Numbered from the stretch's first letter, positions 33,690 through 37,643 are shown. The stretch is 64,000 nucleotides of DNA from an uncultured Gammaproteobacteria bacterium (GCA_913031205.1 CAJWEM010000004.1:1207-65206), one strand, 5' to 3'. Numbers and translations: made by a program. Notes: generated by a model not told the origin, from the sequence alone.

Positions 33690-33774
33690 TGGTGGGCTAG
33701 GAGAGACTCGAACTCTCACGGGTTACCCCACTGGTACCTAAAACCAGCGCGTATACCAATTCCGCCACTAGCCC
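33690..33774 (-). tRNA. tRNA-Leu (anticodon TAG)
   Basis: Reverse complement reads GGGCTAGTGGCGGAATTGGTATACGCGCTGGTTTTAGGTACCAGTGGGGTAACCCGTGAGAGTTCGAGTCTCTCCTAGCCCACCA. Long variable arm. Anticodon loop TTTAGGT gives TAG. Confidence 0.9.
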
Positions 33775-33840
33775 TGAAAATTTAATTATAATTTTCTCAA
33801 AAATACAATTATACAATGTTCTACTGTATTATAATAAACT

Positions 33841-34719
33841 ATGAAAAATGTAATTTTTTTTACAATATATATTGTTTTTTTTGCAATTTGCTCGTCGCTA
33901 ATTTTTTCCATATTGTACATGCAATTTGATGAACAACCAATGCTTGCTTTGAATAAAGCAATCAAGTATGGAGCGATTTTACTTTGTATAATTTTTATAC
34001 TACCCGCGATAAAGTTACAAAATATTTACTCGAAAGAAAAATTAGGCTTTTGTGAACCAAAGTTGGTTTTTTTTAAAAATACTGTTAAGGGTTTTTTGCT
34101 AAGTTTAATCTTATCATTACCCCTTTTAATCACAATGTTCATATTAGACATCAGAAATATTGATTTTAGCTTACTCTACTTTGATTCATATTTTTTTCTC
34201 TCAATTCTTCTAATAACTTTTTTAAGCTTTTTAATTGCATTCATTGAGGAGTCTTTTTTTCGAGGAATACTCGTACAAAAAAATGAGAACATTTTAAATA
34301 CTTTTTTTATTGTAGCTCTAAGTTCATTTATCTATTCTGTTTTTCATTTTTTAAAAATTCCACTTATTATTGATGAAAATCTAGTTTGGTACACTGGGTT
34401 AACTGAGCTTTTTCATGTATTCAGCAATTTATTTAATTTAATTTCGTATGATGCAGCATTAACTTTATTTCTATTTGGTATTTTATTAAGTATTATTAGA
34501 ATAAATTTAAATTCAATTTCGTATTGTGTTGGTATTCATGCTGGTTTCATATTCATAATAAAACTGGTGAGACAAAATTCTACAGTAAATTTCGAATCAG
34601 GATTTGATTATCTTCTTAGTCCTTATGATCACTTTACTGGCTACTTATCATCAGGGTGGATCATCATTATGCTTTTAGTATTAATTTTAGTTATTTCAAA
34701 AAGAGCTTTTTATAACTAA
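33841..34719 (+). CDS. CPBP family (CAAX/Abi) intramembrane glutamic endopeptidase
   Basis: 292 aa polytopic membrane protein with the EExxxR motif (FIEESFFRGIL) and downstream conserved His residues typical of the CPBP/Abi family. Confidence 0.75.
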   Translation: MKNVIFFTIYIVFFAICSSLIFSILYMQFDEQPMLALNKAIKYGAILLCIIFILPAIKLQNIYSKEKLGFCEPKLVFFKNTVKGFLLSLILSLPLLITMFILDIRNIDFSLLYFDSYFFLSILLITFLSFLIAFIEESFFRGILVQKNENILNTFFIVALSSFIYSVFHFLKIPLIIDENLVWYTGLTELFHVFSNLFNLISYDAALTLFLFGILLSIIRINLNSISYCVGIHAGFIFIIKLVRQNSTVNFESGFDYLLSPYDHFTGYLSSGWIIIMLLVLILVISKRAFYN

Positions 34720-34727
34720 ATACAAGA

Positions 34728-36140
34728 TTACATCATTTTAGAAAATCCAATATTGCACTTAAGGTCTGGATCCATTTGAGGCCCATTTACGTCTCGATAT
34801 ATTGGTGTTCCGCATTGAAAACCTATTCTAGTCATAGAGTTTGGAATTTTATAATTAACTCCAAAATTTGTGGATGCTCTTAAGTGTGAGTGGAAATATT
34901 CATTCCACGTTGGGGTTGTTCCCATTCTAAAAGAAGATCTTCCTTGAATATTTTCTTGGTGCTCTAAATCAAAACCAAGTGAGATACTAAAATTTTTTGA
35001 TATCGGCCTTGAAGCCCACAAATTAATTTCCCTTCGATCTCCATATTTCCAACCTTCGCTATTATAATCAAATCTTGTTACTGCATTTAATTGAACTCCA
35101 TATGACCAATTATTAAGTATTTCTTGAAAGCTGTATCCGAGTATTAAATCATATGTGCCCGATCCAATTTGCATGGGATATGGCATCATTTTTAAAACGC
35201 CACTCATGTTGTGATCCTTTTCATTAAATTCTCCTGAAGGAATTGAAATAGCTACTTTGATGTTTGATTTTTTTGAATATCTGTAGAGAGCAGCTAAATT
35301 CAAATCGCCAAAGCCTCTGCTGCTAGTTTTATGAAGCTTTCCCATCATCATCCCAGATAACATTTTCATTTCCATTTCTTTTTCAACATATGGAAGCATA
35401 GCCATTAATGAAAACTTGTTGTCAAGGGCGTACATTGCACTCATCATATGCATGCGCATTGTCATGCTAATAGGAGTCATTGAGTAGCTTAAACCTTTTA
35501 TAAAATTTTCATCAACCGAGCTTGTTCCGTCTCTACAGCATTTCATTTCCATTGTTCCAAATTTATATCCAAACATTAATTTTTTAGGCATCATATTTTT
35601 TCCGCCTTTAACTCCGGCTGGATATACGAAATCTGGTCTACTCATGTTTTTCATCATGTTTCCCATTTTCATATGATCCATTTCTGAGTGATCCATTTCT
35701 GAGTGATCCATTTCTGAGTGATCCATTTTTTTCACTAAAAATTGTACTTTTAATTTTTTTCCACTAGCAAAAAATAAATTTATATCGATGGATTGATTTA
35801 GAGAAATATTTTCTTTAGGTTTCATCAACATAAGGTGATAACCCATCGGTTTAAATTCAAGTATAGTGTTTGCAGATATAGAAACTGAATCTTGTTTTAG
35901 CATTTTCATCATATCGCCATCTTTTTTTGAGAGATGAATTTCTATTTTGCCAAAGAAATTACTTTTAGCTCCTACCAAGATCTGTTCGTCATTAAAATTA
36001 TTTGTCAGCGTAAAGTATCCAGCTGTCATCTGAACATTTGGGGGCATTAATCTAATTGTTGCATTATCAACATCTATGCTTGAAGCAAATGAACTTTGCG
36101 ACAAAAAAAACATTAATACAAATTTTATGAGAACTCTCAT
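34728..36140 (-). CDS. secreted fusion protein: PCu(A)C copper chaperone domain + Met/His-rich repeat + outer-membrane beta-barrel (CopB/PcoB-like)
   Basis: Signal peptide MRVLIKFVLMFFLSQSSFASS. The PCuAC motif H-X10-M-X21-H-X-M is exact (HLSKKDGDMMKM...GYHLM). (MDHSE)x3-MDH repeats resemble the CopB/PcoB N-terminal repeats. The C-terminal roughly 300 aa show alternating amphipathic strands (GFGDLNLAALYRY, YDLILGYSF, WSYGVQLNAVTRFDY...) typical of an outer-membrane barrel. It is very Met-rich throughout. Confidence 0.7.
   Translation of the reverse strand: MRVLIKFVLMFFLSQSSFASSIDVDNATIRLMPPNVQMTAGYFTLTNNFNDEQILVGAKSNFFGKIEIHLSKKDGDMMKMLKQDSVSISANTILEFKPMGYHLMLMKPKENISLNQSIDINLFFASGKKLKVQFLVKKMDHSEMDHSEMDHSEMDHMKMGNMMKNMSRPDFVYPAGVKGGKNMMPKKLMFGYKFGTMEMKCCRDGTSSVDENFIKGLSYSMTPISMTMRMHMMSAMYALDNKFSLMAMLPYVEKEMEMKMLSGMMMGKLHKTSSRGFGDLNLAALYRYSKKSNIKVAISIPSGEFNEKDHNMSGVLKMMPYPMQIGSGTYDLILGYSFQEILNNWSYGVQLNAVTRFDYNSEGWKYGDRREINLWASRPISKNFSISLGFDLEHQENIQGRSSFRMGTTPTWNEYFHSHLRASTNFGVNYKIPNSMTRIGFQCGTPIYRDVNGPQMDPDLKCNIGFSKMM
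35675..35730. repeat. 15-bp tandem repeat (gatccatttctgagt, about 3.7 copies) encoding the MDHSE Met/His repeats
   Basis: Perfect tandem copies at 35675-35689, 35690-35704, and 35705-35719, plus a partial fourth. Seen directly in the sequence. Confidence 0.9.
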
Positions 36141-36232
36141 TTACTGATACCCTTTTTAATCTTTAAAAAATATTGGAAAAACTAACACAATCTCAAAATA
36201 TAATCAAAAAATCTATTATAAAAAGAACACTA

Positions 36233-36640
36233 TCAATTTAGAATTAGGATCAAAATGATTGACGATATAATTATCACAAAATTAAAAACTACAGATAATA
36301 AATGTAAAAATTTAAATCTTTTTTGATTATTTACATCCCTTGATTTATTTATTTGCGGCATTAATACATAATTACTTAGAATAAATAGCATTAAAATTAG
36401 TATCGATAGATATAAAATATTCCCTGTTTTTCCGGAATAAATCATTAAGATTGTTAATATCAAATACTGAATACCGTTATACATATAATATGTAGGAAAG
36501 ACAGAACGTACAAATTTTCCTGCCTCTTCATTCGGCAAAACTGTAAATATTTTAGGCGCAATTGCTATTGAAAAAAATAACATTGATCCTAAAACAAGTG
36601 GTGGTATTACTTTTATAATTAATTCCATTTTTTCCTCCAA
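36233..36640 (-). CDS. DUF4149 (TMEM205-like) four-TM membrane protein
   Basis: 135 aa with 4 predicted TM helices. It carries the conserved AP-x-hF-x-hLP...G-x-h-h-x-x-hFP-x-YY stretch ([27 protein letters not shown]) characteristic of DUF4149. Confidence 0.6.
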
Positions 36641-36686
36641 TAAAATTTTTATAGCTCAATTGAAATTAGTAAAATTTGACCGTAAC

Positions 36687-36763
36687 TGGGGCGAGAGACG
36701 GGGATCGAACCCGCGACAACCGGTACCACAAACCAGTGCTCTACCAACTGAGCTACTCTCGCC
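36687..36763 (-). tRNA. tRNA-His (anticodon GTG)
   Basis: Reverse complement reads G-GCGAGAGTAGCTCAGTTGGTAGAGCACTGGTTTGTGGTACCGGTTGTCGCGGGTTCGATCCCCGTCTCTCGCCCCA. The extra 5' G(-1) pairs with C73, as is typical of tRNA-His. Confidence 0.9.
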
Positions 36764-36771
36764 ACAAAACA

Positions 36772-36848
36772 TGGCACGCCTGGTAGGACTCGAACCTACT
36801 ACCCTCGGATTAGAAATCCGATGCTCTATCCAAATGAGCTACAGGCGC
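36772..36848 (-). tRNA. tRNA-Arg (anticodon TCT)
   Basis: Reverse complement reads GCGCCTGTAGCTCATTTGGATAGAGCATCGGATTTCTAATCCGAGGGTAGTAGGTTCGAGTCCTACCAGGCGTGCCA. Anticodon loop TTTCTAA gives TCT. There is a G1:U72 wobble. Confidence 0.85.
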
Positions 36849-36855
36849 ATCAAAA

Positions 36856-36932
36856 TGGTCGGGGTAGAGGGATTTGAACCCCCGACATCCTGCTCCCAAA
36901 GCAGGCGCGCTACCAGACTGCGCTATACCCCG
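36856..36932 (-). tRNA. tRNA-Pro (anticodon TGG)
   Basis: Reverse complement reads CGGGGTATAGCGCAGTCTGGTAGCGCGCCTGCTTTGGGAGCAGGATGTCGGGGGTTCAAATCCCTCTACCCCGACCA. Anticodon loop TTTGGGA. Confidence 0.9.
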
Positions 36933-37067
36933 AAATATATTTTTATTATACGAAAAAAAAGGATAACATTGTTAAATATATACCCATTAATTATTATGAT
37001 ATTTCGATTGATGAATGGTATTCTAATCAAAAAAAATGTACTTACAAGAATATTTACTCATAAAAGC

Positions 37068-37643
37068 ATGAAAAAATTTATTAAATCTTCGATACTAATC
37101 TTAATATTTATGACAAATTTTGGAGCAAGCGCTGAGATGGCAACAAACACAATAATCAACATAAAAACAAATCTTGGAGATATAAAAATTGAACTCCTGC
37201 AAGATAAATCACCAATTACTTCGGAAAATTTTTTAGAGTATGTAAAATCTAACTATTTTTCTGGGACAATATTTCATAGAGTTATAAGAGACTTTATGAT
37301 TCAAGGTGGTGGTTTCGATACTAATATGAATCAGAAGGAAACAAATACTCCTATAAAAAATGAAGCAAATAATGGATTGAGTAATGAAAGAGGTACGATA
37401 GCTATGGCTAGGACAAATGACCCGCATTCAGCAAGCGCCCAGTTTTTTATCAATTTAAAAGATAATAATTTTTTAGATTTCACAAGCGAAACAATTCAAG
37501 GGTGGGGTTATTGTGTTTTTGGAAAAGTTATAGCAGGCATGGATATTGTTGATAAAATTGCTCAGTCAAAAACCTCTAGTTATGGTCCACATCAAGATGT
37601 TCCAGAAGAACAAATTATAATAAGTGAGATAATTATCGAATAA
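37068..37643 (+). CDS. ppiA: periplasmic cyclophilin-type peptidyl-prolyl cis-trans isomerase
   Basis: Signal peptide [22 protein letters not shown] followed by cyclophilin core ([15 protein letters not shown]...FFINL...[13 protein letters not shown]). The first 136 codons of the track ORF (36660-37067) run across three tRNA genes and are not coding. Confidence 0.85.

Follow-up and report, generated by a model that had tools for sequence, protein, structure and literature searches.

A PCuAC copper chaperone fused to an outer-membrane beta-barrel: a putative copper uptake channel in a marine gammaproteobacterial lineage

Background

Little is understood of how copper passes the Gram-negative outer membrane on its way to the cuproenzymes of the periplasm and the membranes. 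General porins and the TonB-dependent receptors OprC and NosA are the routes usually named. Among the periplasmic copper chaperones are the PCuAC proteins (Thermus PCuAC, Streptomyces ECuC, Neisseria AccA), which are small, soluble or lipid-anchored, and have a cupredoxin-like fold, a Cu(I)-binding motif defined as H(M)X10MX21HXM and a Cu-binding His/Met-rich C-terminal tail (PMC9145763). Here we describe a gene from 64 kb of DNA of an uncultured gammaproteobacterium (CAJWEM010000004.1; the whole analysed stretch is called the window below) whose predicted product shares profile, site, fold and Met/His-rich tail with these proteins. In this product, however, the tail runs on into an outer-membrane barrel, which would tether the chaperone covalently. 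We consider it probable that the tRNA-bounded segment carrying the gene is vertically inherited and that the fusion takes up copper, as an outer-membrane channel to which a periplasmic chaperone is tethered.

Several described systems resemble other parts of this locus. The COG4313/PF13557 channels (Pput2725, Protein Data Bank (PDB) entry 4rl8; SphA; TcpY) and FapF have in common with the barrel of the fusion a 12-strand-type architecture, an N-terminal segment before strand 1 and an sGxGDL...PTG motif. Those characterised so far have been associated with hydrophobic substrates or with export of amyloid, whereas the subfamily considered here has an invariant ladder of methionines, chaperone fusions and leaders that we read as copper-sensing. 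CopB/PcoB (PF05275) are also Met/His-rich outer-membrane beta-barrels with presumed copper passage, but they belong to plasmid-borne resistance, while the context of the fusion points to cuproenzyme supply. CruR and CutF, arrest peptides that sense copper, have a CXXC or CxxxC motif, then about 45 residues, and then RAPP about 3 residues from the C-terminus (PMC9426467, PMC9973294). Leaders of relatives of the fusion and of stand-alone barrels share with them export and a Cys motif about 42-47 residues before R(A/G/S)PP. The gene downstream of the leader in the Bordetella operon cruR-bfrG-crpH encodes a TonB-dependent receptor; in the barrel loci there is a passive barrel instead.

The fusion protein

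The order of domains in the fusion (Table 1) is repeated in its AlphaFold2 (AF2) model, which has a mean predicted local distance difference test score (pLDDT) of 87.9 and consists of a signal helix (residues 2-16), a beta-sandwich (22-137), a disordered stretch (142-162) and a barrel (188-469). By profile, motif and fold, the N-terminal domain is a bona fide PCuAC domain, predicted to bind Cu(I). Pfam PF04314 matches it along the entire profile (residues 24-132, E 4.8e-28, 97.7 bits against a cut-off of 29.4), and the Cu(I) motif H69-X10-M80-X21-H102-X-M104 is intact with exact spacing. Its sequence matches in the PDB are to the chaperones 9yah, 1x9l, 3zja and 2k6w. The cupredoxin-like beta-sandwich, modelled with pLDDT mostly above 90, gives Foldseek TM-scores (normalised to the target) of 0.84-0.91 to AccA (9yah), ECuC (3zja) and the Thermus protein (2k6w).

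The tether that follows appears to correspond to the Cu-binding His/Met tail of PCuAC proteins. Over residues 136-175 it is 22.5% Met and 10% His, and a 15-nt in-frame tandem repeat at 35663-35722 (repeat family D1) encodes (MDHSE)x3 within it. Among relatives its length and repeat type are hypervariable: there are 4-5 repeat units, varied by K/E and N/D, in the close relatives P0001 and P0002, and the repeats of more distant ones are MKM, GMK or HxH. It is always Met/His-rich and is always followed by an invariant RPD.

This RPD begins a conserved RPD..P.GV.G (RPD..P.GVMG) segment ahead of strand 1 of the barrel. The best Foldseek match of the barrel is to the COG4313 channel Pput2725 (4rl8, E 1.3e-12, target-normalised TM-score 0.71) and the next is to FapF; strand elements assigned by DSSP in the model fit about 12 strands. 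A profile of the barrel family has 4rl8 as its sole PDB match (E 0.026). The top 50 PDB fold matches include COG4313 channels, FapF, FadL and autotransporters, and the C-terminal 311 residues match no Pfam family at E<=10, PF05275 and PF13557 included. PF13557 does match four relatives of the fusion (P0007, P0013, P0019 and P0037, 55-66% identical), a 71%-identical barrel fragment (P0041) and stand-alone homologues. Judged from the modelled fold, the domain is a divergent COG4313-type barrel and not a member of the CopB/PcoB family. The original prediction, made from the DNA of the window, had held that this protein handles copper, and in this we agree with it; its label of CopB for the C-terminal domain does not survive, there being no PF05275 match at the above threshold and neither PcoB nor CopB among those 50 fold matches.

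A methionine ladder

What sets this barrel subfamily apart is its methionines. We aligned 59 fused and stand-alone barrels with identities to the window protein down to 27%. Met columns M189, M226, M230, M232, M248 and M256 are invariant in all of them, and M197, M199, M228, M236, M246 and M323 are conserved in at least 90%. On strands 1-3 the Mets alternate with nearly pure hydrophobic or aromatic positions (188, 190, 192, 194; 233, 235, 237; 243, 245, 247, 249, 251) and share their face with Gly, Ser, Thr, Lys and Arg. Acidic residues or His take the alternate positions nearer the outer end of the barrel (198, 200, 225, 229, H231, 253, 255, 257). Since the face with Met and polar residues is opposite the hydrophobic and aromatic one, the Mets would be placed on the lumen side. 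The simplest reading is that about 12 conserved Mets line the lumen as a ladder of thioethers, with an acidic/His mouth above it.

A pair of cysteines, C201-C202 (nt 35535-35540), lies in the turn between strands 1 and 2. It is present in 23 of the 59 aligned barrels, and the others have mostly G and N there.

The following route for copper can be suggested. Copper would be captured at the acidic/His mouth, Cu(I) would move along the thioether ladder across the outer membrane, and the linker and the PCuAC domain tethered by it would take the copper at the periplasmic exit. From there it would be passed on to cuproenzymes, cytochrome c oxidase for one, with a Sco1-type protein as the probable intermediary.

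The barrel family and its links to copper

Barrels of this kind are numerous: the family comprises 1,715 clusters at 50% identity with E<=1e-30 and 3,158 with E<=1e-10. Fusions were sought among those of the best 150 family representatives that have N-terminal extensions. NosL is joined to the barrel in three of these representatives (P0249, P0307, P0308) and also in P0099 and P0112. There is a second PCuAC::barrel protein, P0326, only 24% identical to the window protein, and a YtkA/CtaK-like::barrel protein, P0247; CtaK is the functional counterpart of PCuAC in CuA assembly in Bacillus (PMC9145763). The P0099 gene stands inside a nos cluster, NosZ-x-NosL-NosL::barrel-NosD-NosF-NosY, where NosF and NosY are assigned from cluster position (Pfam gives ABC_tran for one and nothing for the other).

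Operons provide further links. One locus (L087) has a RAPP leader, a barrel, SCO1/SenC and PCuAC as consecutive separate genes, and this operon is an unfused counterpart of the window fusion; a divergent cation-efflux (CDF) gene is upstream, next to the leader. In the cultured Joostella atrarenae (L098), the barrel gene is preceded by a small Cys-containing open reading frame (ORF) and followed by the genes for a TonB-dependent receptor and a PepSY_TM protein. The copper-uptake operon of Bordetella is laid out in this way.

Leaders are found in the lineage of the window as well. Between the fusion and the DUF4149 gene upstream of it there is a slot whose content varies among the ten related loci described below: it holds a leader ORF in 6, an opposite-strand ORF in 3 and nothing in L007, as in the window. 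The six leaders (112-121 aa, exported) have motifs ICT..G, (M/S)CC.D and R[AG]PP, with 43-44 residues between the CC and the R[AG]PP (RGPP in L005), which is 3-5 residues from the C-terminus. As this architecture matches that of CruR/CutF, we read these ORFs as divergent copper-sensing arrest peptides of the CruR/CutF type. Pfam DUF2946 does not match these lineage leaders, and their Cys motif is CC, not CXXC. The sub-clade of the window has lost the leader. In L001, L002 and L006, the nearest relatives of the window, it is replaced by a conserved ORF divergent from the fusion, which has no Pfam match in any of them and might be a regulator to which control has passed.

We also surveyed 80 metagenomic loci with stand-alone barrels, 71 of which had enough upstream sequence. 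An ORF ending in R[AGS]PP is directly upstream of the barrel in 14 of the 71, compared with 4 of 1,529 control ORFs. A further RAPP-type leader is found in L016, and the leader in the cultured Pelagivirga sediminicola (L099) has a weak Pfam DUF2946 match and reads CSLC...ARAPPLPV before its stop codon.

Other genes recur beside the barrels. A divergent PilS-like histidine kinase with six transmembrane (TM) segments is found in L023, L026-L028, L043, L058, L070, L071 and L077, and in L014 such a kinase occurs together with a response regulator bearing an HTH_8 domain. A CarboxypepD_reg lipoprotein of about 290 aa is downstream of the barrel in L032, L038, L041, L050, L056, L060, L067 and L068; this lipoprotein-associated set also has leaders, of the form CFCYDCC...RSPP.

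In the literature that we searched, the coverage of which was incomplete and does not prove novelty, there is no PCuAC::barrel or NosL::barrel fusion and no copper role for COG4313-type barrels.

Direction of transport and nature of the substrate

Copper could also move the other way. The fusion might serve detoxification, with the PCuAC domain gathering periplasmic Cu(I) and the Met-lined barrel exporting or sequestering it, in a manner similar to PcoB/CopB or the Cus methionine shuttle. Met/His-rich sequence is typical of copper-resistance proteins, and CutF-type leaders head detoxification operons too, e.g. cutFOG (PMC9973294). The leader in L087 adjoins the divergent CDF gene, and a homologue on a Methylocystis plasmid is near a CusA/CzcA-type resistance-nodulation-division (RND) system. 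However, the partners of the barrel in fusions and operons are factors of cuproenzyme assembly (PCuAC, Sco1, NosL, CtaK-like) or a TonB receptor with PepSY_TM, and the barrel has no associated energy source for outward transport. Besides, for a streamlined oligotrophic marine host, scarcity of copper would be likelier than excess. We therefore regard detoxification as unlikely, if worth keeping in mind. Uptake is favoured by the assembly-factor partners and by the uptake-type operon layout. Direction is still the main uncertainty, and the case for uptake is weakened both by the CutF-type leaders of detoxification operons and by the distant homologues located beside feoB or Cus/Czc-type systems.

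Another possibility is that the barrel works as other COG4313 channels do. It may admit a hydrophobic or amphipathic molecule, either a chalkophore-like copper complex or something without metal, and some members of the family may take other metals, e.g. Fe(II); the fused chaperone would then speak for downstream processing and not for conduction of ions. Marine copper is mostly organically complexed, which counts for such a substrate, and so does the number of stand-alone members that have no copper neighbour. On a plasmid of Methylosinus sp. C49 (L101), the gene for an annotated outer-membrane protein of 738 aa, whose C-terminal part is a distant homologue of the barrel (30% identical), immediately precedes feoB/feoC, and a PepSY TM protein is encoded nearby; related barrels possibly serve Fe(II) or other metals in parts of the family. 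The lumens of COG4313 channels bind detergent, and this family has been linked to the import of hydrophobic compounds (PMC4493636). Yet a substrate other than a metal would hardly account for an invariant Met ladder accompanied by His and acidic residues, and the repeated copper-chaperone fusions and copper-sensing leaders argue for copper. We find this alternative quite improbable.

A copper uptake channel, which we prefer, has several points against it, and it is fair to list them together. PF13557 misses the window protein itself. The lumen orientation of the Mets comes from the alternation of residues; that copper is transported, which way it moves and which enzyme it reaches are all inferred. 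The COG4313 channels characterised so far are believed to transport hydrophobic molecules (PMC4493636). About 80% of stand-alone barrels have no recognisable copper neighbour, and among 126 immediate neighbours classified with Pfam the common ones are the PilS-like histidine kinases and the CarboxypepD_reg lipoproteins (9 each). With feoB beside the Methylosinus homologue, some of the family may handle other metals. Finally, the 64-kb window has no Sco1 or oxidase gene (nor a second PCuAC gene), and its 92-bp gap has no RAPP leader or any other ORF.

Genomic context of the fusion

The gene for the fusion lies in a segment, 33775-36686, which is exactly the interval between the two tRNA boundaries called with ARAGORN (Table 1). 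Three ORFs fill it: CPBP/Rce1-like, the PCuAC::beta-barrel fusion and DUF4149. The flank on the tRNA-Leu side is tig-clpP-clpX-lon-hupB-ppiD, and that on the tRNA-Pro side consists of ppiA (cyclophilin), an lpxH-like metallophosphoesterase, a DUF4147/MOFRL protein, ykuD and purF. An ORF of 327 aa with a TTG start at 36660-37643 was discarded as an artefact that reads across all three tRNA genes; the start of ppiA is placed at about 37077.

ARAGORN thus confirms the extent of the segment and the flanking tRNA genes as the original prediction gave them, and both flanking blocks that it named, tig-clpP-clpX-lon and ppiA-lpxH, are as it described. Pfam upholds the CPBP, PCuAC and DUF4149 parts of its gene identities, CopB being the part that falls, and we concur that all three products are envelope proteins. 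It had further proposed that the segment is a variable region at an integration site, i.e. a horizontally acquired islet targeted to tRNA genes, whose three envelope proteins could act as one copper module reaching from the outer to the inner membrane. There is something to be said for this. The segment does resemble tRNA-associated islands in its flanking tRNA genes and in content unlike that of E. coli, Pseudomonas and a distant outgroup. Nonetheless, tRNA flanks alone do not establish an island, and in what follows the segment differs from such islands.

Composition is native. GC content, GC content at third codon positions (GC3) and codon usage of the three genes all fall inside the spread of 58 ORFs of at least 100 aa selected from the window, and a check for skew relative to the flanks, which had been proposed, finds no deviation. 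The GC of the three genes is 0.25-0.33 with a window mean of 0.305, their codon-usage distances are in the range of other genes, and GC is about 0.25-0.35 all through the region. The GC3 of the fusion is slightly high (0.295) because ATG makes up 10% of its codons. We saw no recombinase or integrase among the ORFs or the Pfam-annotated genes of the region; the three segment genes are all assigned otherwise, and short extra ORFs in the segment overlap them or the tRNAs. None of the 16 families of direct repeats includes an att-like repeat copying a tRNA 3' end.

Position is conserved. We examined ten related loci, five of which (L001-L005) were obtained by exact-protein look-ups of fusion homologues and five (L006-L010) by a trigger-factor scan of one genome per species. 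All ten keep the order tRNA-Pro/Arg/His - (DUF4149) - (small ORF) - fusion - CPBP - tRNA-Leu - tig, with the fusion and CPBP at the same site in each, and the empty tRNA-Leu/tRNA-His junction that an insertion might have left in relatives is thus found in none. The identity of their tig to that of the window ranges from 93% down to 46%. Because the order is the same despite such divergence, the segment must be ancient and fixed in the lineage. Of the genomes that carry a name, the closest are single-amplified and metagenome-assembled genomes of uncultured marine gammaproteobacteria, one of them labelled "uncultured Thiothrix sp. AH-287-I11". These comparisons indicate that the segment is no mobile islet: it appears to have been inherited vertically and to have long resided in the core chromosome of an abundant marine gammaproteobacterial lineage of low GC (about 30%).

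In L003 and L005 several conserved genes are broken into fragments (clpP, lon, ppiD, MOFRL and, in L005, the fusion), probably owing to indel errors of assembly. We considered whether this split PCuAC|barrel could be a natural unfused form and rejected it, since clpP and ppiD of the same contig are also fragmented and assembly frameshifts are likely.

The region is somewhat plastic, in a weak sense only: there is different cargo in the outgroup, a variable DUF4149-fusion gap, loss of DUF4149 and exchange of alleles. The outgroup, a distant high-GC gammaproteobacterium (L011, tig 30% identical), has the order folD, tRNA-Pro/Arg/His/Lys, a MerR-like (cbpM-like) gene, a DnaJ-like (cbpA-like) gene, tRNA-Leu, tig; these cbpA/cbpM-like names were read from translations and not from a profile search. 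The positions of tRNA-Leu and tRNA-His/Arg/Pro are conserved in L001-L011. The same tRNA frame with other cargo means that the genes which split the tRNA cluster differ from lineage to lineage, and it counts, together with the tRNA genes on both sides and the gap that differs among relatives, in favour of an islet.

So does a replacement in one sub-lineage. In tig and lpxH, identities among the window, L001 and L006 are 90-94%, but the fusion of L006 has 68% identity with the window's and 85% with that of L002, a more distant relative. When L006 is compared with the window at the nucleotide level, identity falls sharply from 0.85-0.92 to 0.69-0.75, and does so only across 34000-36100; this stretch comprises the 3' part of CPBP and the fusion, which were replaced together by a diverged allele. 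As far as the sequences tell, this is homologous allele replacement between sub-lineages and not insertion. Such replacement is common for surface proteins, and selection on a surface protein has perhaps driven it here.

The two neighbouring genes

It remains to consider whether the three genes act together. The CPBP protein is probably an active intramembrane protease: all 11 lineage sequences keep E136, E137, R141, H169 and H233, the residues of its catalytic motifs (EExxxR, FxxxH and third His), and it lacks the usual N/D four residues past the third His. Its gene is convergent with that of the fusion, with stop codons 8 bp apart, and being transcribed convergently it is not in the operon of the fusion.

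DUF4149 shares its strand with the fusion, which it precedes, and comes directly after the tRNA cluster, and the two may be co-transcribed; their common orientation past the tRNA cluster is a further point for a module. A scan gave 17 promoter-like sites where 19.9 were expected and 0 terminators, and is uninformative in AT-rich DNA. The true start of DUF4149 is probably ATG 36628 (131 aa) instead of TTG 36640, since all homologues begin MEL(I/L)IK. Its AF2 model (pLDDT 90.8) is a bundle of four transmembrane helices (2-34, 37-68, 74-99, 103-134), with which a PDB fold search finds no match with E<0.78. A homologue search retrieves only sequences of the same lineage, in which the protein is very strongly conserved (76-96% identity). 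We also tried DUF4149 as a CopD-like protein and rejected it, as no CopD match at E<=10 exists in 22 members and there is no fold match.

The fungal DUF4149 gene xanD is within a copper-responsive gene cluster, which would fit a role with copper, but its deletion leaves the known products of the cluster unaffected, and the DUF4149 fold matches no transporter. Co-occurrence within the lineage is hardly informative, since every flanking gene is just as syntenic, and it is in any case incomplete: the fusion and CPBP are together in all ten relatives, while DUF4149 is absent from L004 and L009, where the other two persist. In 84 barrel loci of other lineages (643 kb) there is no homologue of CPBP or DUF4149, although hidden Markov models built from the lineage have limited distant reach, and neither is in the 25 of 96 barrel-neighbour Pfam families that are listed. 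The proposed outer-to-inner-membrane module is therefore not supported, and neither CPBP nor DUF4149 has a detectable sign of copper handling; of the two, DUF4149 is on weak grounds the more plausible partner of the fusion. With native composition, no integrase seen, no att-like repeat, the same place in every relative and a convergent CPBP, we judge a horizontally acquired islet that forms one copper module to be very improbable.

Table 1. Positions of the features discussed, in the window unless a related or homologous locus is named
Feature	Position	Strand	Description and basis
tRNA-Leu(tag)	33690-33774	-	ARAGORN; lower boundary of segment, 23 nt upstream of tig and on the same strand as tig
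CPBP/Rce1-like glutamic intramembrane protease	33841-34719	+	292 aa; Pfam PF02517, E 1.5e-9, 38.4 bits, cut-off 22.4
PCuAC::beta-barrel fusion	34728-36140	-	470 aa; PCuAC aa 24-132 (Pfam) and C-terminal domain of ~295 aa
COG4313/PF13557-type outer-membrane beta-barrel, aa 176-470	34731-35615	-	AF2 model, Foldseek, family profile
Met/His-rich disordered tether, aa 138-175	35616-35729	-	pLDDT <50 at aa 142-162; composition
PCuAC domain, aa 21-137	35730-36080	-	Pfam PF04314, motif, fold
Predicted signal peptide, aa 1-19 (MRVLIKFVLMFFLSQSSFA|SS)	36084-36140	-	read from sequence; Sec/SPase I type, no lipobox Cys; putative cleavage site
DUF4149-fusion gap	36141-36232		92 bp; variable slot among L001-L010
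DUF4149/TMEM205-like	36233-36640	-	135 aa; Pfam PF13664, E 1.6e-9, 38.3 bits, cut-off 24.6
tRNA-His(gtg)/tRNA-Arg(tct)/tRNA-Pro(tgg) cluster	36687-36932	-	ARAGORN; upper boundary of segment, upstream of DUF4149 and fusion, same strand
Leader ORFs	L003 6080-6439; L004 9599-9937; L005 7461-7823; L008 7054-7419; L009 7081-7440; L010 7091-7447		directly upstream of fusion
Opposite-strand ORF, 129-131 aa	L001 9311-9700; L002 5385-5777; L006 6803-7198	-	conserved, divergent from fusion
Outgroup locus, same tRNA frame	L011 2571-5274		cbpM-like and cbpA-like cargo
Unfused operon	L087 1847-4634		leader, barrel, SCO1/SenC, PCuAC
Joostella atrarenae locus	L098 4400-10059		barrel with TonB-dependent receptor and PepSY_TM
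Pelagivirga sediminicola locus	L099 4556-6134		barrel with leader
Methylosinus sp. C49 plasmid locus	L101 4816-10221		homologue upstream of feoB/feoC

Implications

A wider suggestion can be made, to which we would give even chances. The Met-ladder COG4313-type barrels may constitute a large undescribed family (the 1,715 clusters above) of TonB-independent outer-membrane copper channels, which are governed by RAPP sensors in some lineages and have repeatedly been fused to chaperones (PCuAC, NosL, CtaK-like). The window would then hold the PCuAC-tethered form, supplying respiratory oxidases in copper-poor seawater. Joostella atrarenae and Pelagivirga sediminicola, cultured carriers of such barrels, are candidates for genetics; Ruegeria spp. 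are further cultured carriers.

If correct, a widespread passive barrel with a thioether pathway joined to an acceptor chaperone would fill the outer-membrane gap in our picture of copper supply. The fusions would also provide a Rosetta-stone argument for the order of hand-off, from the outer membrane to PCuAC or NosL and from there to Sco1/oxidase or NosZ. Part of a family that is now annotated "transporter", "alpha-amylase" or "phenol degradation" would be reassigned, and regulation by CruR/CutF arrest peptides would gain more targets. Such a channel would also bear on the limits that copper sets to respiration and N2O reduction in the sea.

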